Below the pieces are notes generated by a model. That model worked only from the letters and a program-made list of their open reading frames with translations. It was not told the DNA's origin and searched no databases. The translations under genes and the position numbers were made by a program. Of a DNA stretch of 64,000 bases, positions 387 to 32,850 are shown in pieces (the stretch's first letter is position 1; each line of letters starts with the position of its first letter). This DNA is from Thermoplasmata archaeon (GTDB lineage: Archaea; Thermoplasmatota; Thermoplasmata; Lutacidiplasmatales; UBA184), in the NCBI GenBank assembly GCA_028864975.1, contig JAGWLG010000006.1:32001-96000 (forward strand), read 5' to 3'.

Positions 387-929
387 TCAGACCCGTCGCC
401 CCCTCGGTGCGCGCGGGGTCAAAGTTCGGCGGCGCACTGCGGTCCTCGTGCCCTGCCGCAGTGCGTCGCGGATGATCCGTGCATGGTCCGCGGCCAGGGG
501 GGGAAGGTGGGCCAGGGAGAACCACCTGGCCTCCGCGGCGTCGTCCCCCCCCAGCGGGGTTCCACCGACCCGCGCGACCCTGAAGGCCACGGTCACAATG
601 TGCCCGCGGGGGTCACGACGGGGGTCAGAGTAGACCCCCACCAGACCCGCCGGACGCACGTGAACCGAGGTCTCCTCCCGGAACTCGCGAGCCACCGCTC
701 GCTCGCAGGTCTCGCCGATCTCGACGAACCCCCCTGGGAGGGCCCACCTCCCCTTCCACGGGGGCCTTCCGCGCTGCACCAGCAGGATGCGCCCTCGAGC
801 GAACAAGAGGCCGTCCACCGTCAGCGCGGGGGTCTCGAGCGGGGGTCGATCGGCGTACGGCGAGAGAGGATAGGGCTTCAAGAGGCCGCGCGGGGTCCGC
901 GAGCCTCGGGGGCTACGGGTTGAGGGCAA
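387..929 (-). CDS. Nudix hydrolase (ADP-ribose pyrophosphatase-like)
   Basis: Nudix box GGFVEIGETCERAVAREFREETS, plus WALPGG and SDPRRDPRGH. Start uncertain. Confidence 0.9.
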   Translation of the reverse strand: MPSTRSPRGSRTPRGLLKPYPLSPYADRPPLETPALTVDGLLFARGRILLVQRGRPPWKGRWALPGGFVEIGETCERAVAREFREETSVHVRPAGLVGVYSDPRRDPRGHIVTVAFRVARVGGTPLGGDDAAEARWFSLAHLPPLAADHARIIRDALRQGTRTAVRRRTLTPRAPRGRRV

Positions 930-1906
930 GGAACCCCCATGCGACCGACAGCAGAAGTAGCCCTCCGACCAGCCACGGGACCCATCGGACCCACCGCGGT
1001 GGGCCGCGCGGAGGACCGCGACCCGCCGTCGTCCCTGGAGATGGCCCCAGGACCTCCTCGTCCGATACTAAGGGTATCCTTCCCCCGGCCATCGCGAAGG
1101 ATCAGGACACGACCCCACCTCAAGGTTCGGGAGTCCCCCCGCGATCCCTCGAGCCTCTTCGGTCCGGGCTCGGATCCTCCGTCGATCGAGCGATCGAAGG
1201 GTCCTCGGAGGTGGCCTTGCTCTTCTCCGGCGGCCTCGACTCTGCGCTGCTAGCGCTCCTGCTTCGCGAACGCGCTCGTTCTCGGGGGCTCGCGGTCCAT
1301 CTCACCACGATCGGGCTCGAGGGCTCGGCCGACCTCCAGCAGTCCGAGGACGCTGCTCGGAGCTTGGAGATGGCTTGGAGCGGTTCCCAGGTCTCCCGGG
1401 AGGAGGTCGTCGAGGCCGCACGCAAGGTCCGCGCTACGGAGCGTGGCGTGGCACCGAACGCTGGAACCGGAGGGCCGGAGGGGGTCGCGCTCGAGGTGCA
1501 GACCGGGATCTACCTCGCCTTGGCCCACGCGCCTTGCTCGAGGGTCCTTTGCGGTCAAGGGGCCGATGAGCTCTTCCTCGGGTATGCTCACTTTCGGCCG
1601 CTTTCCGGGGAGCGTCTGAGGGTCCGGTACCAGGAGGACGTGCGGCGGCTCCGCGAGGTCGACTGGCCGATGAGCCAGCGGCTAGCGGCGTCCCTCGCGC
1701 GCGATCTTCGCGCGCCGTACTTGGACCCATCCTGGTGCGCGCAAGTCGAGTCATACGCACTCGAAGCTCGACGTCCCTCGGGAGTGCCTAAGGGCCTGCT
1801 CCGACAGCTCGCGGCCTTGATGGGATTGCCCGAGACCCTCGTGCAGAGGCCCAAGAAGGCGCTCCAATACGGGAGTGGGATCCACTCGGTGCTCTCCCGA
1901 GCGTGA
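920..1906 (+). CDS. Asparagine synthase C-terminal (N-type ATP pyrophosphatase) domain protein lacking the glutaminase domain
   Basis: SGGLDS PP-loop, GQGADELFLGY and RPKKALQYGSG motifs. True start probably later (~1100); no canonical start there. Confidence 0.8.
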   Translation: MRARNPHATDSRSSPPTSHGTHRTHRGGPRGGPRPAVVPGDGPRTSSSDTKGILPPAIAKDQDTTPPQGSGVPPRSLEPLRSGLGSSVDRAIEGSSEVALLFSGGLDSALLALLLRERARSRGLAVHLTTIGLEGSADLQQSEDAARSLEMAWSGSQVSREEVVEAARKVRATERGVAPNAGTGGPEGVALEVQTGIYLALAHAPCSRVLCGQGADELFLGYAHFRPLSGERLRVRYQEDVRRLREVDWPMSQRLAASLARDLRAPYLDPSWCAQVESYALEARRPSGVPKGLLRQLAALMGLPETLVQRPKKALQYGSGIHSVLSRA

Positions 1907-2211: not shown

Positions 2212-3801
2212 ATGGCCGGACCTCCACCACCTCCCCCTCCAGCCTCCCCTGCTTCGGGCCCGGGAGCTCCTGCGGCCATGCAGGGTTCCTGGGGGGCCTC
2301 CCCTACCACCCCCCAGCGACCGCGCCACGTCCTCGTGCTGGACATCTCGAAGAGCATGCTGGCCCCCCTCCCCGACCCGAGCGACCCCACCAAGATCCGC
2401 AGGAAGATCGAGGTGGCGAGGGCTGCGACGTACCGCATCTTCGAGGCGGTCCAGTCGCAAGGCGCGGTCTTCGGGCTGGTCATCTTCAACAATGTCGCCC
2501 ACGTGGCCATCCCGCTAACCGAGATCCGCCCCGAGATCCGGCCCGCGCTCGACAACCTGGTCGCGCTCCTTCCCCCCAAGGGCCGTTCCGCCATCTGGGA
2601 CGCGCTCGCCCTGGGGGCCGACCTGCTACGCGTCGAAGGGGGTTCCACGGTCGGCAACCTCGTGCTCGTCACGGACGGGTGGGACAACATGTCCCAGCGC
2701 TTCGGGGCCCCCGGTGTCGACCTCCCTCCCCCTCCTCCGCCTGGGGCTCCTCCGGGAACCTATCCCCCTCCTCGGTCCGACATCCTGGCCTACCTGCTCA
2801 CCCAGGGCAGCCGGCTCGGGCTACGGATCATCGGCATCGGCAGCGGGGTCGAACGCGACAAGGGGGTCGACTCGCAGCGGATGCAGGCTTTCGCCTCCAT
2901 CTACCAACAGCGTTCGCAGCAGTGGCGCCTCCCCTGCACTGTGAGCTACGAGGAAGTGACGACGAGCGAGGAGCTCTTCTCCCGCATGGTCCAGGCCTTT
3001 GTCGACGTCCCGTTCGAGGACGCCCTGGCGGTGGAGAACCTCCATCCGGACGAGCTTGCCGAGGCGGCCGCCTCCGCGGCGCGGGCCCTCCGCGACACCG
3101 AGGGCAAGCGGAGCGTCGTGGGACACCTCGCCTCGGGTCCTGCGGGGGCCGCTCGGGGCGGGACGCGAACTGCCGAGGGCACGTCGAGCCCCGGCATGGA
3201 GGTCGACATCCTGAGCCCCCAGGTCGGTCCGTCGGCCGTGAACCTGCGGGACCGCTACGGCCCGCTGGGGGAGGTCGCAGAGGCCTACATGGCCCGAGAC
3301 TGGGCCCGGGCGCAGGCGATCCTCTACCAGAAGGGGGGACTCATCGCCCCCGTCACGAGATTCTACTGGCAGGCCCGCGTCTACTACGCGCAGGGGGAAA
3401 AGACCGAGGCAGGACGCTACCTTGCTCAAGCCTGGTCCGAGGCCGAGACGCTCGCCCCCCAGGAGCGAGGGCGGGTCGTGCGCCGCCTCGCGCTCCTGCA
3501 GGCGAAGGTCGCAGGGGACAAGGAGACCGAGAGCCTGGTGACCTTCTACGACGCCGCCGAGACGAAGGCGAGGTCCCTCGGCGGGGGGCTGGACAAGAAG
3601 CTCGAGCAGATGTTCGACAAGATCCTCTCGCTACGGGGGACCTATGCGGGCGTCAAGGGGGGAGGGGCCGCAGCGCACGAGGCTCTGGTCGAGGAGATCT
3701 TTGGGCTCCTGCAGGATGCCCGGCTCGCGAACACCGGACGCGAGCCCTCGGTCGATGCTTTCCTCGACTTTGTGGAGATCGCCTTGGCGGAGATGAGGTA
3801 G
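2212..3801 (+). CDS. vWA domain protein with C-terminal helical/TPR-like region
   Basis: MIDAS motif DISKS, SAIWDAL and LVLVTDG; C-terminal helical repeats (FYWQARVYYAQGE). Alternative start ATG 2278. Confidence 0.85.
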   Translation: MAGPPPPPPPASPASGPGAPAAMQGSWGASPTTPQRPRHVLVLDISKSMLAPLPDPSDPTKIRRKIEVARAATYRIFEAVQSQGAVFGLVIFNNVAHVAIPLTEIRPEIRPALDNLVALLPPKGRSAIWDALALGADLLRVEGGSTVGNLVLVTDGWDNMSQRFGAPGVDLPPPPPPGAPPGTYPPPRSDILAYLLTQGSRLGLRIIGIGSGVERDKGVDSQRMQAFASIYQQRSQQWRLPCTVSYEEVTTSEELFSRMVQAFVDVPFEDALAVENLHPDELAEAAASAARALRDTEGKRSVVGHLASGPAGAARGGTRTAEGTSSPGMEVDILSPQVGPSAVNLRDRYGPLGEVAEAYMARDWARAQAILYQKGGLIAPVTRFYWQARVYYAQGEKTEAGRYLAQAWSEAETLAPQERGRVVRRLALLQAKVAGDKETESLVTFYDAAETKARSLGGGLDKKLEQMFDKILSLRGTYAGVKGGGAAAHEALVEEIFGLLQDARLANTGREPSVDAFLDFVEIALAEMR

Positions 3802-3856
3802 CCTTGGGAGTCCGAAAGCATAAGACGGAGGGTCGTCATACGAAGGAGAGTTCGGA

Positions 3857-5206
3857 ATGAGCCCGCCCACACCCGCGAAGACCGCATCGAAGAAGAGGGC
3901 CCCGGCCGAACCTTCCGCCACCGCACCCGCCGTTCCGCAGGCTCCTGTCGTGCCTTCCACCCCGGTCGCGCCGTCGGCGGAGGTGATCGCGCCCGTGGTG
4001 AAGCGGGTCGCTCCTGGCTCGATCCCCGCTCCCGCGCGCAAGGTGGCCCTGGCGCCTCCTACCCCGCGCCCGCTCCCACCCCCTCCCGAGCCCGAGCCGC
4101 CCGCCGCGCCGGCGCTCGCCGCGAAGATCGCGGTGGTGGGGATTCCGGCCTCCGGTAAGACCACCTACTTCCGCTACCTCTCCGGCCACTTCGGCCTGAA
4201 CCTGCCGCTGGTCTACGTGCCGAGCCGCTCCGGCACCGTCGTCCCGCTCTTCGGGGACATCGGGAACGAAGTGGTCATGGAAGAGACGACGTACGAGTCG
4301 GACCCGAACCACCCCGACGCCGCGATGGACACGACGACCCGTCTCTACGTGAACCGCCCGATGGAGGACCCGACGCGGCTTTTCGTCGAGCTGGCCCAAG
4401 GACAGGAAGAGCAGGGGATCCTTACGAAGTACCCCCTGCCGACGAAGTACAACCAGTTCGTCGAGATGAAGCTCAACTTCCGCTTCGGGGTCACGGGGAA
4501 CATCGGGGGAGCGAAGCCGATGGTGCTCCGCACCGTCGACGAGGCGGGAGGGATCATCTCGGACTACTTCACCTACGACCGGCTCTGGATCGGCCACCCT
4601 CAGGAGGAGGTCCCTATGGAGAAGTGCCGGGTCATCCCGCGCTTCGACACGTGGAAGCCGGACCGGCAGGAGCTCTGGCGACGGGGGCTGACCTTGATGG
4701 GAAGGTTCACCGTGGACGCCGACGGGATCATCCTGCTCCTGACGCCCCAGCTCGGTTCGCTGCGCGACAGCGCGCAGCAGGTGAACCTGGCCCGCGGGGT
4801 CTTCCGCTACGCCCGTCAGCGAGGGATCCCGGTGGTCATCGCGATCTCGAAGGCGGACCTTCTGAAGGAGTTCTACCTCGAGGTCGAGCAGGTCCTCACC
4901 AACCGGGGGTACCTCTCCCCCTTCGACGCAAACCGTTTCCTGACCGAGCGGGACGGGAGCGGGCTCGGCAGCATCCTGGCAGCCCAGGAGGGCCGAGGGT
5001 TCTCGACGAAGCAGGACGCCTTCCTGGTCGCCTCGGCGATCTCCACGGGGGAAGGCCGACCCCTGCTCTACGGCGACACGGCGGACGTGGACCTCAACAA
5101 CGGGGCCACCGCCGGGGTCCCGGTCATGGTCAACACCACCCTGCCGCTGGCCAGGATCTGCGAACGCGTCCTGACCCAACGAGGAGAGGCCCCCGCGGGC
5201 GCCTGA
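3857..5206 (+). CDS. Atypical TRAFAC-class P-loop GTPase (double-GTPase-like) with Pro-rich N-terminus
   Basis: G1 GIPASGKT, probable G2 YPLPT, G3 DEAG, G4 SKAD, G5 SAI; GGAG RBS upstream. Confidence 0.75.
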   Translation: MSPPTPAKTASKKRAPAEPSATAPAVPQAPVVPSTPVAPSAEVIAPVVKRVAPGSIPAPARKVALAPPTPRPLPPPPEPEPPAAPALAAKIAVVGIPASGKTTYFRYLSGHFGLNLPLVYVPSRSGTVVPLFGDIGNEVVMEETTYESDPNHPDAAMDTTTRLYVNRPMEDPTRLFVELAQGQEEQGILTKYPLPTKYNQFVEMKLNFRFGVTGNIGGAKPMVLRTVDEAGGIISDYFTYDRLWIGHPQEEVPMEKCRVIPRFDTWKPDRQELWRRGLTLMGRFTVDADGIILLLTPQLGSLRDSAQQVNLARGVFRYARQRGIPVVIAISKADLLKEFYLEVEQVLTNRGYLSPFDANRFLTERDGSGLGSILAAQEGRGFSTKQDAFLVASAISTGEGRPLLYGDTADVDLNNGATAGVPVMVNTTLPLARICERVLTQRGEAPAGA

Positions 5207-5213
5207 ACGGGTC

Positions 5214-7775
5214 ATGTCCACGGCGGCGCCGAACCCTGTGGGAGAGGCGCGCCCTGGTGCCCCCCCCGCCTCCCGTACCCTCCCGCCCGGCGTCCCTCCG
5301 TCCGGCAAGGACCGCAGCCTGGTGTCCGTGGTCTGGTGCCGTCAGGTGGACAACGAGGCGGAGAGCCCAGGGTACACGACGGTCCCGACGGAGTTCCCCG
5401 GGCGAAAAGAGACCCTGGACCTGGTGCGGGTCGTGGGCAATCTCGCGATCAACGCAGCTGACACGCACGACTACTGGGACCCGGACCCGTCGACCAAGCT
5501 CGCCTACTACAACAACCTCTTCCTCTATCCCGCCCACGGCGGACGCTACCTCTGCCTGGGTCGGATGTTCCTCTCGACCGAGGACCGCCCGCGATTGGGC
5601 ATGAAGACCCTGGTGCTGGACACGTCGAGCCTTCTCGCCTCGGAGAACCTGGGGCAGGCCCTTCGCCGTTGGTACGCCTCGATGGGGAATCCCGGCCGCG
5701 TCGCCCCGCCGTCCGGGAAGGTCGACCCGCAGCTCGTGGAAGTGCTCTCGGAGGGCTTCACCTACCTGCGAGGGGACCCGACCACTCCGCTCCTGGGGTT
5801 CGTCTCGGACATCTTCGAGAGCGCCGTCGAGGCCGTGTTCTCGCTCCTCGAGCGGGTGCCGATGTCCGTGGCCGGCCGCTCCGGGATCCTGATCTTCCCG
5901 TACTTCCTCCCCGTGGGCCGCGTCAACTTCCCCGAGTTCGCGGAGAAGTTCCCGCTGACCCTGGGTCTCGCGCGGATCCCCCGCAACGAGGCGGGAGGCG
6001 ACCGGCATCAGAAGCGGCTCGCGGGATGGGCCGGCCAACCTGTTCGCATGATCGATCTGACACAGGGGGTCCCCTCGGACCCTGCAGGAGCCTTGACCCC
6101 TCCCGCGCCCGTCGCCTGGTGGTGCAGCGGAGAGAAGAGCGAGCTCGCTTCCGACCTTCGAAAGGGGGTGGACGCGGTCGAGCTCCCTCGACTCCGAGAG
6201 CCGGCGAAGAGCGACGAGGAGACCTCCGGAAGTGCGCACAGGAGAGAGCTCGCACGCCTCGGAGAGGTGATGGTCACTCTCGCGGGGGCGCTGGAGCGTC
6301 CTGCGGAGGAGCGAAGGGAGCTGGATGCCGAGACCTCCTCCAAGGTCGGAGCGTATCTCACGGCCATCGGCCCGGTCGCTCCCGTACCCGAGACCGGTGT
6401 GCTCTCGTCGAGCTTCGCCCCTGCGGCCAAGGCCTCGGGGGCCCTCGCCTCGGGTCCCGTCGCGGGATCCACCGAGACCGCCGAACCTCCCTGGCGACGG
6501 ACCCCGCGGCTCCGATCGGAGCGTTCCGAGGTGGTGCCCGGCCCTCGGGTCGGCCCGGGGGGCGCCGTACCTCCCGGGGTCGAAAGCCCGCCCGCCGCGG
6601 CCCCCGTCGCTCCGGTCGGGACCAGCCCCGCCGCCGGAAGCGCCCTGGTGTCGCAGGCGTCCGCCGCACCCCCGCAGTTCGCCGACGTGCTCCGGCTCTC
6701 CCCCACCCTGCTCGAAGAGCTTCGCGCGTACATCGACGGTCGCATCGGAGAGGTCAAGACCCGCACCGGAGATCTCGATCCCGACGTCGTCGGTAGGCTC
6801 GAGCGGGACCTGGAGCGTCGGCTCGAGGCGAAGGCCAACCTCCTGGTCTCGCCCGAGGCCCTGGAGGCTCGTGTCGTCGAGGTCCTCTCCCGTCGACCCC
6901 CGCCCCCTCCACCGGACCCTCGCTCCCTCCTGACCGACGAAGTGAAGGCCTCGCTGGCTGACGTGGTGAACTCGCTCGTCGCGCAGCGGCTCACCGAATC
7001 GTCGGCCCAGAAGGTCCCGAAAGCGCCTCCCGAAGTGACCTTGGCCAAGGTGGACGACCGCGTGCTGGAGCTCCTTTCAGGCCAGACGGGGGAGAGGCGG
7101 GCGGCCGTGCTGATGGAACAGAAGATCCAGCGCTACGTCTCGGCCTCCGTCGAGGCCGACCGGAGGTCCACCGACGATCGTCTCGACAAGCTACTCAAGG
7201 AGCTGCAGAGCCGGGCCAAGGCGCAGACCGAGCTGGAGGCCACCATCCGCGCGGAAGTGCGTTTCCTCGATGAAAAGCTCCAGACGCTGATGGGTCGGAT
7301 GATCCCGCTGCTCAAACGGACCTGGCTCAAGATCGACGAGCTCGACAAGCGACCCGCGGGGAGCGGCGGAGCGTCGGAGGCGAAGATGAAGCGCCTGCGG
7401 GACGAGCTTTGGTCCGAAATGAAGCGCCTGGAGCTCGACCTGTCGGAAAGGACGCGCCTTATCCTCGACCGGGTGGAGGGGAACATCCAGAACCAGGGCC
7501 GGCTCTGGCTGACCCTCGTGACCCAGCTCTCGAGCCTCACGGAGCAGCGCCGGGAGCTGGAACGGATCGTTCAGGAGTCCAAGGAGGACATCGAGAGCTC
7601 CTCTTCGCCGGAGGCTTCCCCCGAGGTCGAGGTCGAGGGGGGAGAGACCTCTACGAAGGGGGCCCGGGAGGAGGAACCCCCCCGCAAGGGCCCCCGCGGG
7701 CTCCCAGCGTCCGAATCACGGCACTCGACACGAGCGACACGAACCGACGGCCCGTCCGCCGGTACAGAGGGTTAA
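5214..7775 (+). CDS. Large protein: globular N-terminal domain (GAP1-N/DENN-like, tentative), Pro/Ala linker, long coiled coil, acidic tail
   Basis: 853-aa ORF 7 nt after the GTPase stop with host-like codon usage; heptad-rich charged C-terminal half. Domain identity is inference. Confidence 0.7.
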   Translation: MSTAAPNPVGEARPGAPPASRTLPPGVPPSGKDRSLVSVVWCRQVDNEAESPGYTTVPTEFPGRKETLDLVRVVGNLAINAADTHDYWDPDPSTKLAYYNNLFLYPAHGGRYLCLGRMFLSTEDRPRLGMKTLVLDTSSLLASENLGQALRRWYASMGNPGRVAPPSGKVDPQLVEVLSEGFTYLRGDPTTPLLGFVSDIFESAVEAVFSLLERVPMSVAGRSGILIFPYFLPVGRVNFPEFAEKFPLTLGLARIPRNEAGGDRHQKRLAGWAGQPVRMIDLTQGVPSDPAGALTPPAPVAWWCSGEKSELASDLRKGVDAVELPRLREPAKSDEETSGSAHRRELARLGEVMVTLAGALERPAEERRELDAETSSKVGAYLTAIGPVAPVPETGVLSSSFAPAAKASGALASGPVAGSTETAEPPWRRTPRLRSERSEVVPGPRVGPGGAVPPGVESPPAAAPVAPVGTSPAAGSALVSQASAAPPQFADVLRLSPTLLEELRAYIDGRIGEVKTRTGDLDPDVVGRLERDLERRLEAKANLLVSPEALEARVVEVLSRRPPPPPPDPRSLLTDEVKASLADVVNSLVAQRLTESSAQKVPKAPPEVTLAKVDDRVLELLSGQTGERRAAVLMEQKIQRYVSASVEADRRSTDDRLDKLLKELQSRAKAQTELEATIRAEVRFLDEKLQTLMGRMIPLLKRTWLKIDELDKRPAGSGGASEAKMKRLRDELWSEMKRLELDLSERTRLILDRVEGNIQNQGRLWLTLVTQLSSLTEQRRELERIVQESKEDIESSSSPEASPEVEVEGGETSTKGAREEEPPRKGPRGLPASESRHSTRATRTDGPSAGTEG

Positions 7776-7799: not shown

Positions 7800-10700
7800 G
7801 TGTCCACGTCAGGGGGCACGCCCCCCGGCAGGTCCGCCCCCAGCGTTAGGGTCGGCCTAGTCCTTCTCGGGATGCTCGCGCTCGTCCTGGGTGGCTCGAT
7901 GGTCCTCCCGGTTCAGGGCACCCACGCTCTCGCCGCGGTCCCCTCCAACACGTCAGGCATGGGCGCGGCGAGCACGAACCCGATGCCTTTGCAGCATGGC
8001 GCCGCCGCCTCCGCCTCCCCGTTGCCTCTTCTTACACGTTCGACGATCGACCCGGTCCTTCCGTACCTCAGCCCCCGACCGCACGTTCCAGCTCCCGGGG
8101 GACCAGGACTTCCGAACCTCACGGGGAACATCACGGGATTCACCCTGGCGCCCCTCTCTTTCTCGCTCACGGGGAATACGGGCCAGCGGTTCAACGCGAC
8201 GATCGGAGCGATGCCGACGGGGGGCAATTCCTCGACCTACGTCTTCGTCCTGCTGGGCGAGACGGTCTCCACGAACTCCACCGCCCTGGTGGGGTACATC
8301 GAAGGTACGTTCGGCCCATTCACCGCCGCGCTTCCCCTCTACCTTGTGCTGAACGGGACCACGCTCTCGACCTGTGGGTTCGGCGGACAGATCATGATGC
8401 CGGGGCCGACGGTCCACACCTTCGCGATGGAGCAGGCCCACCAGGACTGGTGGAACTTCCTCTTGGACGGGAGCCTCATCACGGGAGGGAGCGGGCTCGG
8501 CGGGGGCGGCTTCTGCTCGGGGACCGGGAACGGGACCGCCGACCTCTACGCGGCGAGCACCAGCCCGTTCGTCCTCCCGCTGTTCGCATGGCTCGTCTCC
8601 GCGAACGTCTCGGGCCTGCCCACGTTCCAGATCCCCATCGTCAGCGAGTACCGCACGGGGTCCACGTGGTCCCAGTCGACGGCCGGGACCGTGATCCTGG
8701 ATTCCGTCCTGGGGGTCGAGGGGTACCTGCAGGACTCCACGATCCCCCCGGACTCGGTCGTGGGCGGACCTGCCGTTCCGGTGCAGACCCCGGCCACGTT
8801 CCTGTGGAACACGGGCCCCTTGCCCGCGTTGACGCTCGACCAGAAGGGACTCCCCGGGGAGCTCACTTCAGGAGAGAGCGCCTCGTTCACGGTTTGGATC
8901 AACTCGAGCTCGACCCATAGGGGAGTGAGCAGCGCGAACCTCGCGACGAACTCCTCGCTCGGCGGAGCCTTCGTGCCGAACGGGGGGGGAACCGTTGCGG
9001 GCGAGGACCAACTCGTGTTCACCGCCCCGAATACGATCCAACACGGGAACGACACCATCACCCTCCTCGCCACCGGCACCGGATATGTCGGAGTGAGGTC
9101 GACCTATGCCCTCGGGATCAACGCCGCGCTCCTGGTCCTCCACGCCCGTCCACCTTCTTCCCCCGTCCCGTCCGGGTCGACCACGTCCATCCCGTTCTGG
9201 GTCAACACGTCGCTGGGCGTGCCTGCCGTCCCGACGCAGTTGGTCCCTTCGGTCAAGGGTGGCGGAACCGTGGTGCTTGCTCCGGAGGGAGGGACGACCC
9301 CGGGACTCTACTTCGTGGACTTCACCGCCCCGCTCTTCTCGCGTCCCACCAATTCGACAGTGTTCCTCACCGCCTCTGGCCCCGGGCTCATCACGCAGTC
9401 CGGGTCGGCGACCGTTCCGGTGGGGCTTCGGCCCCTGCTCGTGCTGGGCCCTCCCCCGGGTAACGTGTGGGTCGGAAGCACCGTCTCCTTCGGCCTGTCG
9501 CTCTCGACCCCGGCCGGGAACCTCCCTGTCGCAGGGGGGAGCCTGTGGAACGCAACGGTGCTCGGGGATGACGGGGGAGCCCCGATCCCCTTCGCAGACA
9601 CGGTAGCGGCCGCAGGGGCGACCGCCGTCCTGCGGGTGTCGATGGACCCGACCTACCTCGGTCCGGTTTGGTTCTGGATGAACGTTTCAGCCCCGGGTTT
9701 CGTCCTGTCCGGGGCGACCTGGTGGGAGAACTCGACGGGCAACGCCACGCTCCAGCTCTCCGGACTGCCGGCCGACGTTACCGAAGGACAATCGGTGACG
9801 CTGACGCTGGAGGTGCTCGGCCTCCAGGGTTACCCTCTGGACGGGGCGACCGTCGAGTGGAGCTCTTCCTCGGGAGGGTTCGGTCCGAACGGTGACGCGA
9901 GCGCGCTCGGGTACACCGATTCCACCGGGAGGACGACGGTTCAGTTCGACCCCGCTAGTGTCAGCAACGACACCCCCCTGCTGGTGAGCGCCTCGGTGAC
10001 GTATCCCTACTATGCCCCCGCCTCCGTTACAGGGACCTCCACCGACACGGTCGCGACCGGCCTTCTTGGGACGGCGGACCACGGTATCGCGCTGATCGAC
10101 CTCATCCTCGCTCTTCTGCTCCTCTCGCTCCTTCTCGCCCTCTACGCGGAGTCTAGGTCGCGACAGTCTCGGCGCTCCCCCGGGGCCGGCGGCGTGCGGG
10201 GCGCGGGGTCGGGGTCCTGGGCCCCTCGCGACGCAGGGGAGGGCGAAGGCCGGGCACCTTGGCCGGGGGCCATCACAGCCCGCTACGAAGAGGAAGAACT
10301 AGGCGCTTCCGACCATCCTCCAGAGAGAGAAGCGCGCCCGCCCCAAGTGCCCCCGGTGCGAGGGCAACTTCCACCTCCCGCTTCGGACGCCTCGGGTCCC
10401 GCGGGGAAAGAGGGGATGGATGACGCCGACGACGAACCTCTGCCCCCTGAAACCTCTGCAGCCCCCAGCCCACTCGCGTCGACGGCCCCCGTACCTCCCG
10501 CTGACGAAGGCTCGAGGACCGCTCGGGACGAGCCTTCGGCCGCCTCAGCGCCGAGTGGGTCGATGTCGGGCGCGGCGGAGGTCAAGCCTCAGCCTGTCTC
10601 GGAGCCTGCCGGGGCGCCAGCGCCCGCGCTCCGTCCAAACCTCGCTGACCCACCGTCCGGGGGTGAGGTCGAACCATCGTCCCCAAGCACCCCGCCGGGG

Positions 10701-10805
10701 GGGACCCCAGGGAAGGATGCGCGAGCTGGGAGACAGCGCGATGAACGGAACCCCCCGCCGCGCCGCCAGACGCGCAAGCGAACGGGTACCGACCTTGTGG
10801 AGTAG
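7800..10805 (+). CDS. Membrane-anchored surface glycoprotein: signal peptide, beta-rich N-domain, Ig-like repeats, TM helix, disordered cytoplasmic tail
   Basis: Hydrophobic N-terminal VGLVLLGMLALVLGG; many N-x-S/T sequons; Big-like YPLDGATVEW...YTDSTGRTTVQF; TM IALIDLILALLLLSLLLALYA followed by basic residues. Confidence 0.8.
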   Translation: MSTSGGTPPGRSAPSVRVGLVLLGMLALVLGGSMVLPVQGTHALAAVPSNTSGMGAASTNPMPLQHGAAASASPLPLLTRSTIDPVLPYLSPRPHVPAPGGPGLPNLTGNITGFTLAPLSFSLTGNTGQRFNATIGAMPTGGNSSTYVFVLLGETVSTNSTALVGYIEGTFGPFTAALPLYLVLNGTTLSTCGFGGQIMMPGPTVHTFAMEQAHQDWWNFLLDGSLITGGSGLGGGGFCSGTGNGTADLYAASTSPFVLPLFAWLVSANVSGLPTFQIPIVSEYRTGSTWSQSTAGTVILDSVLGVEGYLQDSTIPPDSVVGGPAVPVQTPATFLWNTGPLPALTLDQKGLPGELTSGESASFTVWINSSSTHRGVSSANLATNSSLGGAFVPNGGGTVAGEDQLVFTAPNTIQHGNDTITLLATGTGYVGVRSTYALGINAALLVLHARPPSSPVPSGSTTSIPFWVNTSLGVPAVPTQLVPSVKGGGTVVLAPEGGTTPGLYFVDFTAPLFSRPTNSTVFLTASGPGLITQSGSATVPVGLRPLLVLGPPPGNVWVGSTVSFGLSLSTPAGNLPVAGGSLWNATVLGDDGGAPIPFADTVAAAGATAVLRVSMDPTYLGPVWFWMNVSAPGFVLSGATWWENSTGNATLQLSGLPADVTEGQSVTLTLEVLGLQGYPLDGATVEWSSSSGGFGPNGDASALGYTDSTGRTTVQFDPASVSNDTPLLVSASVTYPYYAPASVTGTSTDTVATGLLGTADHGIALIDLILALLLLSLLLALYAESRSRQSRRSPGAGGVRGAGSGSWAPRDAGEGEGRAPWPGAITARYEEEELGASDHPPEREARPPQVPPVRGQLPPPASDASGPAGKEGMDDADDEPLPPETSAAPSPLASTAPVPPADEGSRTARDEPSAASAPSGSMSGAAEVKPQPVSEPAGAPAPALRPNLADPPSGGEVEPSSPSTPPGGTPGKDARAGRQRDERNPPPRRQTRKRTGTDLVE

Positions 10806-31284: not shown

Positions 31285-32850
31285 GTGTTCCTAGAGCATC
31301 TGCCCCTCGAGCTCCGAGAATTCCTCTCCATGCCCTCGACTCGGACCTTGCTTGTCCACGGAGGTCCTGGCAGTGGCCGGACCAGCCTCGGTCTGGCCCT
31401 GGCGGTGGCCTCTCCAGGTCGGAAGGTATTCTTCTCCGGACGCAACCCCGCCCAGGAGGTCCGTCGACAGTTCGGATGGCTGGCGGGGCCGGCGGGCCGG
31501 GACGTGGAGTTCCTGGACGAGAGCGAAGCCTTGCTGTCGCGGCCCCAGCATCTGCGCCTGGGTCCCACCCTTCCACGACCCGCCGGTCCGGGACGCCGCC
31601 CTTCCACGCCTCCCCCCCTACCCACGAAGGTCCAGGAGGCGCTGCCCCAGGGGCTTCGTGAGCTCCTCCTTCGCACGAACGAGGCCACGCCCACCATCGT
31701 GGTGCTGGACAGTCTGGAGGCTCTGCTCGAACACGTGCAGCGAGGCTTGAGCCGGGGCCTAAGCCGACCGTTGGGACGGGAGGACATCGCGGCGATGCTC
31801 CTGCAGGGGCTCTCGCGAACCCCGGCGCACTTCGTGCTGCTCTCCGAATCCACGGCGCCCGACCAGACCGACTACCTCGTGGACGGGCTGGTCACGCTGG
31901 ACGAGCGATCGGTCGAGGGCCTGCCGTTGCGACTGCTCACCGTCCAGAAGATGCGGGGCGCCCAGCGCAGCCACTTCCGGTACCCTTTCACGCTCGACGG
32001 GGGGATGTTCCGGACATTATCGCCGTGGGCCCCGCCTCCGCTCTCCCGCGTCGTGCTCCCCGAGCCCGAGCCAGCATCGGCCGCGAGCCCCGCGAACTCG
32101 GACGGGCTCTGGCCCGGATGTCGTGGCTATGCGGACTTCTTCGGGACGCTGGCCCCCGGGCGCCTCACGATCATCGACCAGGAGTCGACCTGCCCCGCCG
32201 AGGCCGGGGAGACGATGATCTATCCCATGGTGGCCCACGTACTTGGGCAGGGGGGACAGGCGCTGTTCATCCCGCCCCCCGTGACCTCGCCGACGGAGGT
32301 GTGGGAGATGCTGCAGAGCACGGTCCCGCGCGAGCGGCTCGTCGAGCAGCTCAAGATCGTGGTCGGCAAGCTGGAGCCCGCGCTCTTGGACGACCATCTG
32401 AGCGCCTTGACGCCGCTGGCCGCAGGTCCGAGCGGCTTAGGGGCGGGCGAGGAGTCCGAGGGGGTTCTGGTGGGAGGACGGACCCGCTCCCCCTCCACGC
32501 TCCGCAGGTTCCTTGGATCGATGGCCGAACGTCCTTCGACCAGCCTGGTCGTGGCGGAACTAGCGGGCATCGAGTCCCTGCTCTCTTCCCTCGAGGGGAC
32601 CCCCTTGTCGTCCGGCGACCTGCCGGTGGTCCTTCGTCGGGTCCTGCTGCGGCGAGGGATGCATGCGGTCATCCTGGGGGACGGCAACGACTCGCGCTTC
32701 CGTGCCCTACGACCCATCGCCCACCGTGAGCTCAGCGTTCGTCTTCACGAAGGTCAGGTCTACGTGTACGGGGTGCGTCCTCGAACGCTCCTCCTAGGAC
32801 TAAGTCACGGAACGGGGATCTCCCCCTACGAGCTCATTCGGATGGCGTGA
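31285..32850 (+). CDS. GvpD/KaiC-like tandem RecA-fold protein
   Basis: GTG 31285 with GGAGG RBS; Walker A GGPGSGRT, Walker B IVVLDS, YLVDGLVTL and QKMRG KaiC motifs; second domain degenerate. Confidence 0.8.
   Translation: MFLEHLPLELREFLSMPSTRTLLVHGGPGSGRTSLGLALAVASPGRKVFFSGRNPAQEVRRQFGWLAGPAGRDVEFLDESEALLSRPQHLRLGPTLPRPAGPGRRPSTPPPLPTKVQEALPQGLRELLLRTNEATPTIVVLDSLEALLEHVQRGLSRGLSRPLGREDIAAMLLQGLSRTPAHFVLLSESTAPDQTDYLVDGLVTLDERSVEGLPLRLLTVQKMRGAQRSHFRYPFTLDGGMFRTLSPWAPPPLSRVVLPEPEPASAASPANSDGLWPGCRGYADFFGTLAPGRLTIIDQESTCPAEAGETMIYPMVAHVLGQGGQALFIPPPVTSPTEVWEMLQSTVPRERLVEQLKIVVGKLEPALLDDHLSALTPLAAGPSGLGAGEESEGVLVGGRTRSPSTLRRFLGSMAERPSTSLVVAELAGIESLLSSLEGTPLSSGDLPVVLRRVLLRRGMHAVILGDGNDSRFRALRPIAHRELSVRLHEGQVYVYGVRPRTLLLGLSHGTGISPYELIRMA

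Follow-up and report, generated by a model that had tools for sequence, protein, structure and literature searches.

A Three-Gene Module of a vWA Protein, a Predicted Ras-Like GTPase and a Putative DENN/GAP1-Type Partner in One Family of Thermoplasmata

Introduction

Small GTPases together with their longin- and DENN-type regulators are a hallmark of eukaryotic membrane organization. To our knowledge, archaeal pairs of this kind have been discussed almost solely for the Asgard lineages. Here, we analyze three consecutive genes (hereafter, the trio) encoding a von Willebrand factor A (vWA) protein, a GTPase and a protein with a globular head on a long stalk. They are located in a 64,000-nt stretch of DNA (the window; positions 32,001 to 96,000 of contig JAGWLG010000006.1, GCA_028864975.1) with a G+C content of ~68%, which originates from a 3.6-Mb metagenome-assembled genome (MAG; 89.6% complete) of the archaeal order Lutacidiplasmatales (the TMEG group).

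In the DO-GTPase/GAP1 systems (Kaur, Burroughs, Iyer, Aravind, eLife 2020), a TRAFAC-family GTPase with a Glu in Walker B (whose exact position is unstated) is encoded directly upstream of GAP1. The same survey found vWA and coiled-coil or tubulin partners to be frequent in GAP1-N2 systems, which were suggested to build cytoskeleton-like assemblies; it described a paralogous GTPase pair and an N-terminal Zn-ribbon or transmembrane segment as frequent (but not universal) features of DO-GTPases, and the conflict systems themselves as mobile and patchy, with variable effectors. The trio shares with these systems a TRAFAC GTPase gene followed by the gene of a multi-lobed partner (an order kept at every family locus that we inspected), the vWA and, probably, coiled-coil partners of GAP1-N2 systems, and three GTPase features: a G4 of the [ST]KxD form, a switch I of the K[FY]PxxT form, and a Glu in the Walker B motif. 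It differs in having a single GTPase, with the Walker B Glu placed differently and the N-terminus free of a Zn-ribbon or transmembrane segment, in lacking GAP1-C, FNIII, GASH or an effector, in its vertical, family-wide occurrence and housekeeping context, and in the absence of any hidden Markov model (HMM) or profile-profile match of its proteins to the GAP1 and DO-GTPase families.

A second related arrangement was described in Asgard archaea (Liu et al., bioRxiv 10.1101/2020.10.19.343400), where a LAMTOR1-like Roadblock protein, a Rab-like GTPase and a DENN-domain protein are encoded in one operon. There, as in the trio, an archaeal small GTPase gene lies beside a DENN-type protein gene in a conserved arrangement. 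However, the trio belongs to Thermoplasmata, a vWA protein takes the place of Roadblock, the GTPase has large inserts and is an orphan rather than Rab-like, and the DENN-like head is mounted on a probable coiled-coil stalk and, unlike the Asgard DENN domain, is not detectable by sequence.

Results and Discussion

Organization of the Trio

We consider it reasonably probable, if far from certain, that the trio serves as a GTPase switch module with a housekeeping role, specific to its lineage and inherited vertically, and composed of a Ras-like GTPase, a DENN/TagF/GAP1-type regulator and a vWA adaptor. Its genes are as follows.

2212-3801, + strand, vWA protein with a metal-ion-dependent adhesion site (MIDAS), 529 aa
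3857-5206, + strand, GTPase, 449 aa
5214-7775, + strand, head-and-stalk protein, 853 aa

The coordinates and the intergenic spacing (55 nt between the vWA and GTPase genes, 7 nt between the GTPase and head-and-stalk genes) agree with the original prediction, which a model had made from the letters of this DNA. Two starts are available for the third gene, ATG at 5214, giving a 36-residue Pro-rich disordered extension and the 7-nt gap, and GTG at 5322 (the database call, 817 aa), which falls at the first strand of the head. No transmembrane segment is found in any of the three proteins.

The GTPase

From its motifs, the 449-aa protein is predicted to work as a true guanine-nucleotide switch and to belong to the extended Ras-like (MglA-like) type. 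All motif strings that had been singled out as unusual are present, and G1-G5 are invariant or nearly so in 28 orthologs.

3857-4111, + strand, disordered N-terminal extension, P/A/K-rich, ~85 residues
4139-4165, + strand, G1 GIPASGKTT, residues 95-103
4430-4447, + strand, switch I YPLPTK, residues 192-197
4538-4552, + strand, G3/Walker B DEAGG, residues 228-232
4847-4858, + strand, G4 SKAD, residues 331-334
5033-5044, + strand, G5 SAIS, residues 393-396

Three large inserts interrupt the G domain (one following helix 1, one separating G4 from G5 and one beyond G5), and the AlphaFold2 model (predicted local distance difference test, pLDDT, 71; predicted template-modeling score, pTM, 0.78) displays a small-GTPase core carrying these inserts. 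The protein has both the motifs of the TRAFAC class (extended Ras-like) and a predicted small-GTPase fold. In other genera the N-terminus is a short Lys/Arg-rich tail of ~30 residues; membrane and nucleic acid are possible ligands of such a polybasic tail. Structural scoring placed MglA ahead of Rab/Ras by only ~1 Z, with Nog1 no better than Ras or Rab. As compared to MglA, the trio GTPase shows 17% identity, the three inserts and a SKAD motif where NKxD would stand. The two have in common that DxxG is not followed by a glutamine, and therefore hydrolysis by the trio GTPase is probably partner-dependent. Weak Foldseek matches of the GTPase model to kinesin, YcjX, mitofusin, BDLP and septin (TM-score 0.2-0.3) were set aside, the VIA-align result being preferred.

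The GTPase lies outside the common housekeeping families, as had been expected. Pfam and NCBIfam scans of the trio proteins returned nothing but VWA_2 and P-loop-level matches, searches of the PDB by sequence and by profile gave nothing useful, and an exhaustive HMMER profile search of 1.84 billion representatives with the GTPase yielded 15 matches, of which 12 (E <= 1e-10) are members of its own family or fragments of them, the remaining three (P0278, P0279 and P0280; E 2e-6 to 8e-5) being weak and covering short stretches. We treat the GTPase as a sequence orphan. The proposed relationship to DO-GTPases was upheld in part: the nearest named clusters in the ESM Atlas carry DO-GTPase2 and DO-GTPase1 (0.94, 190-197 shared features), but the DO-GTPase HMMs (PF19975/PF19993) do not match the protein at E<=0.1, nor does PF19993 match its gene in a search of the whole genome at E<=10 (PF19975 was used in the protein scan alone). 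In an hhalign comparison with canonical DO-GTPase2, the P-loop alone was aligned (21 columns), the global mode being meaningless. There is one GTPase gene per genome, and neither Cys pairs nor a transmembrane segment occur in the N-terminus.

Canonical pairs do exist in the class. In Thermoplasmataceae/Cuniculiplasmataceae-type genomes, a DO-GTPase2 (at least ~490 aa, with a multi-transmembrane N-terminus and the motifs GPPxxGKTTF/NDIAGE/TKTD) is directly followed by a GAP1-N2 protein of 530-606 aa; these pairs (L029-L039, L041-L048) occur in 7 of the 27 genomes of family f20, a patchy distribution unlike that of the trio, and a GAP1-N2 scan aimed at a wider profile returned no more than 8 Thermoplasmatales loci. 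By eye, the trio and the canonical pairs have several motifs in common; the comparison sets GIPASGKTTY of the trio against GPPxxGKTTF of the canonical pair in G1, KYPLPT against KFPELT in switch I, SKAD against TKTD in G4, and DEAGG (with an invariant Glu) against DIAGE in Walker B, the positions of the Glu being different; a Trp ... Gly-Tyr pattern between strands 1 and 2 of the head is seen in both.

A Sec23/Sar1-like reading of the locus (a vWA "trunk" and Sar1-named homologs) was also rejected, automatic JGI names being its sole basis.

The Head-and-Stalk Protein

The 326 homologs of the third protein are all unnamed or annotated as "hypothetical protein" and, where an organism is given, derive from Thermoplasmata MAGs (the name given being "Thermoplasmata archaeon" except for one "Candidatus Lutacidiplasmatales archaeon"). 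The N-domain strings quoted in the original prediction are present and constitute the most conserved parts of the protein.

5301-6218, + strand, globular head, residues 30-335: longin/roadblock-like lobe (~36-160), alpha/beta three-layer lobe (~165-288) and short helices
5328-5375, + strand, strand1-loop-strand2 VVWCRQVDNEAESPGY, residues 39-54, nearly invariant in 16-47 orthologs; candidate GTPase-facing surface by analogy with the W-D/G-P region of C9orf72-type longin GAPs
5574-5609, + strand, hairpin STEDRPRLGMKT with R125 and R127, residues 121-132, invariant; candidate arginine finger
6711-7583, + strand, stalk, helical and probably a coiled coil, residues ~500-790
7296-7343, + strand, conserved C-terminal segment RMIPLLKRTWLKIDEL of the stalk, in a block kept across genera
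7491-7532, + strand, conserved segment NQGRLWLTLVTQLS of the same block

The claim of a long coiled coil holds insofar as the 290-residue stalk region is E/R/K/L/Q-rich and gives weak matches to coiled-coil-type Pfam families in orthologs, but the region is broken by proline runs. In other genera the stalk is longer, and the proteins reach 1000-1250 aa.

Our modeling of residues 1-345 by AlphaFold2 (pLDDT 78.6, pTM 0.82) produced two lobes. Foldseek ranked C9orf72, as part of its complex with SMCR8, WDR41 and ARF1, first among the matches of this model (E 9e-3). The predicted head resembles GAP1-N/GAP1-M and DENN/TagF in its fold and language-model features, not by sequence, so the suggested GAP1-N/DENN idea is supported as a likeness on the first two counts, and membership fails on the third. 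None of the GAP1 HMMs (PF20012, PF20013, PF20014, PF20052) matched the window protein or any of 77 orthologs at E<=1 (orthologs of the third protein were scanned against Pfam in sets of 30, then 47 sequences), uDENN/DENN/dDENN or related HMMs were absent from 78 sequences, and a PDB profile search was likewise empty. PF20013 found nothing in the whole genome at E<=10, a profile of the head alone retrieved fragments of its own family and nothing else from 5.8 billion proteins, and hhalign of the head-and-stalk profile against seven Thermoplasmata GAP1-N2 proteins gave a probability of 0.3% (with shallow profiles, not including secondary structure). The link of the head to DENN and GAP1 by predicted fold is weak.

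The foremost alternative is that the DENN/GAP1 likeness arose by chance, both lobes being common ones, and that the trio includes a structural rod of a new kind (a scaffold of the cytoskeleton or envelope), namely the third protein, which assembles under the control of the GTPase and the vWA protein and whose head has neither GTPase-activating protein (GAP) nor guanine-nucleotide exchange factor (GEF) activity. We regard this as doubtful in view of several features of the head. Among solved structures, alignment across the two lobes together is seen for DENN proteins and TagF alone. The matches to the first lobe by itself are mostly longin/roadblock proteins of GTPase platforms (Loki longin, C9orf72, Nprl2/3, FNIP2, Lst4, Ragulator, Rag C-terminal domains, MglB and MglC). 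An independent method also points to GAP1: the ESM Atlas clusters nearest by features to the head-and-stalk protein are GAP1-N2, GAP1-N1 and GAP1-M (0.85-0.90), and model-to-model comparison gave TM-scores of 0.54-0.57 over 220-239 residues to GAP1-N2/M and GAP1-N1 (0.48 to TagF_N), the ESM Atlas model of the whole protein being poor (pLDDT 0.46). Finally, the most conserved residues fall in the longin-like lobe, in a gene adjoining that of the GTPase.

The nearest counterparts by predicted fold include eukaryotic longin-DENN regulators (the DENND1A/1B GEFs and the C9orf72-SMCR8 and FLCN-FNIP GAPs) and bacterial TagF; relative to MglB, the Roadblock/longin-related GAP of MglA in bacteria and archaea, the trio protein has an additional alpha/beta lobe and a stalk. 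Longin GAPs of the C9orf72 type combine a W-D/G-P motif with an Arg finger (PMC12290439), and the layout of the head, with the EDRPR hairpin located ~72-74 residues past Pro-Gly, is reminiscent of this combination.

The vWA/MIDAS Protein

The first protein comprises a disordered P-rich N-terminus, a vWA domain (~40-230), a linker and a helical C-terminal domain. Pfam VWA_2 (PF13519) matches residues 40-156 (33.6 bits against a cut-off of 27, E 6e-8), and the MIDAS is intact as predicted, with D44, S46, S48, S126 and D155 (a Ser in place of the usual Thr) invariant in nine orthologs. Its elements are as follows.

2341-2355, + strand, MIDAS element DISKS
2581-2601, + strand, MIDAS element GRSAIWD
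2668-2688, + strand, MIDAS element VTDGWDN

The last 190 residues, described earlier as TPR-like, are indeed conserved and apparently helical, with an invariant LAEMR tail, but no TPR model matched this region in the Pfam scan.

Distribution, Synteny and Remaining Alternatives

Inheritance of the trio is vertical and restricted to one Thermoplasmata family. Single-protein queries found it as single-copy, adjacent genes in the same order in 23 of 24 same-family genomes from seven genera, whereas the 16 genomes sampled from other families in the order and class yielded none. A profile search with the GTPase extended this to 30 of 37 family genomes (29 of 36 without the unpublished genome G120) and to 0 of 263 genomes of 32 other Thermoplasmata families.

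The seven family genomes in which the GTPase is absent (G011, G127, G199, G217, G228, G240 and G269) all belong to genus g4, are 92-97% complete and, at 1.3-1.8 Mb, represent a smaller-genome subset of that genus. The vWA protein and the head domain are also missing in six of them (G011 and five others; G228 was outside this check). In G199, aIF6 and the M50 peptidase gene lie 3.0 kb apart on one contig, as compared to 8.6 kb in genomes that carry the trio. Hence, the genes are truly missing, and the trio behaves as an all-or-none unit, in line with the anticipated conservation of the trio. These genomes offer a natural knockout set for comparative genomics. Overall, a GTPase outside the common families, a head with GAP1-N/DENN similarity in predicted fold and three co-occurring genes are, point for point, the opposite of what the original prediction had listed as its possible refutation.

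Family-wide, nothing but the trio itself stays linked across genera. At 6-7 of 8 loci of other genera, it is co-directional with the genes for rpS19e, a PDCD5-like protein and aIF6 on one flank, and the opposite flank (also at 6-7 of 8 loci) carries a cytidylyltransferase-like gene, DUF5611 and an M50 peptidase gene. In the genus of the window the trio is relocated, being flanked by an asparagine-synthase-like gene and a large surface protein. In the window genome (G000), the S19e/PDCD5-like/aIF6 genes are found on contig C65, the cytidylyltransferase/DUF5611/M50 genes on C44 and the trio on C119; hence the trio moved as an intact block. The GTPase is conserved more strongly than aIF6 and rpS19e: identities between the window genome and G008 are 64% for the GTPase, 59% for S19e, 55% for aIF6 and 50% for the M50 peptidase.

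These data bear directly on the framing of the trio as a ternary conflict system, namely a bona fide anti-virus/abortive-infection system that belongs to the DO-GTPase/GAP1 class and whose effector is unrecognized or encoded elsewhere. The DO-GTPase and GAP1 families among the ESM Atlas neighbors, the gene order and vWA association typical of GAP1-N2-type systems, and the canonical DO-GTPase2/GAP1-N2 pairs of other Thermoplasmata all speak for it. However, the class is mobile, patchy and effector-linked, whereas the trio is single-copy and family-wide in one family only; its ancestral neighbors are ribosomal and translation genes, its GTPase is more conserved than aIF6, and no variable neighbor, FNIII or GASH is kept with it across genera. 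No toxic effector was found with the trio, as had already been noted, and PADLOC recognized nothing among its genes. Vertical inheritance, housekeeping neighbors, the lack of an effector and the high GTPase conservation therefore argue against a conflict system, which we consider very improbable, and for a housekeeping switch; the scaffolding or cell-organizing role that had been mentioned as a fallback is the better reading.

Still less probable is a translation- or ribosome-assembly-associated GTPase module, in which the vWA protein would play a part like that of the MIDAS domain in eukaryotic Rea1/midasin: the ancestral position adjoining rpS19e and aIF6 is in its favor, but the trio is intact in genus g1 though relocated from these genes, its GTPase is missing in seven related genomes and scores no higher against Nog1 than against Ras or Rab, and the trio is limited to one family, while ribosome assembly is universal.

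The paper describing the order Lutacidiplasmatales makes no mention of the trio genes.

Proposed Mechanism and Implications

In the housekeeping switch module that we favor, the gene directly downstream of the GTPase would encode its cognate regulator, with a longin plus alpha/beta head of the DENN/TagF/GAP1 fold type. This head may offer the GTPase its invariant strand1-strand2 loop (W41...S51-P52-G53-Y54) and its Arg-bearing invariant hairpin (E123-D124-R125-P126-R127); we favor a GAP over a GEF activity. The coiled-coil stalk, via its conserved C-terminal segment, would fix, position or dimerize the complex, and the vWA protein might use its intact MIDAS to latch onto an acidic residue in a partner or target, thereby linking the complex to that target. 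The result would be a scaffold-like complex whose assembly is gated by GTP. Our data show the gene structure, the motifs, the predicted folds, the synteny, the all-or-none distribution and the strong conservation; we infer the physical binding, the direction of regulation (GAP vs. GEF) and the role of the MIDAS. As to the cellular process, organization of the cell envelope, membrane or division is our guess.

In evolutionary terms, we view the trio foremost as a domesticated relative or analog, lacking an effector and extremely divergent, of the bacterial DO-GTPase/GAP1 (GAP1-N2-type) pair. A more speculative extension, which we find possible but hold tentatively, is that DENN (of eukaryotes and Asgard archaea), TagF (of type VI secretion) and GAP1 form one ancient two-lobed superfamily of GTPase regulators, and that one family of non-Asgard archaea has domesticated a pair of this kind, fused to a coiled-coil tether and joined to a MIDAS adaptor, as core cell-organizing machinery. 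If true, eukaryotic GTPase-plus-tether modules would have in the trio a prokaryotic counterpart, one with an origin outside the eukaryotic stem.

With the Asgard Roadblock/Rab-like GTPase/DENN operon already published, the trio is a variant module in a different archaeal lineage, and through it a regulator with a predicted DENN/GAP1 fold and an orphan GTPase of the MglA-like kind are now placed in a family of Thermoplasmata. Its hosts are uncultured soil archaea. The trio provides a compact three-protein test case for the role of such GTPase/regulator pairs in a simple cell, and it can bear both on a shared origin of GAP1, TagF and DENN and on the domestication of "conflict-system" GTPase modules for housekeeping.

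Neighboring Genes in the Window

Upstream of the trio, 920-1906 (+ strand) encodes an asparagine-synthase-like protein, of which the synthetase part alone is matched (PF00733, E 6e-22), with no match to a glutaminase domain; its start codon is doubtful because of the TTG start and a long low-complexity N-terminus. Downstream, 24 nt past the trio, 7800-10805 (+ strand) encodes a 1001-aa protein with an N-terminal signal/transmembrane segment, a large Ser/Thr/Gly-rich beta-type ectodomain (weak Big_1 match), a transmembrane segment at ~763-781 and a 220-residue P/E/R-rich cytoplasmic tail. A repeat-rich membrane protein is often present in GAP1-N2 systems. The gene of the 1001-aa protein is found near the trio solely inside the genus of the window (~1.9 kb downstream in L018), and the protein is probably outside the module, since its proximity to the trio is confined to that one genus.

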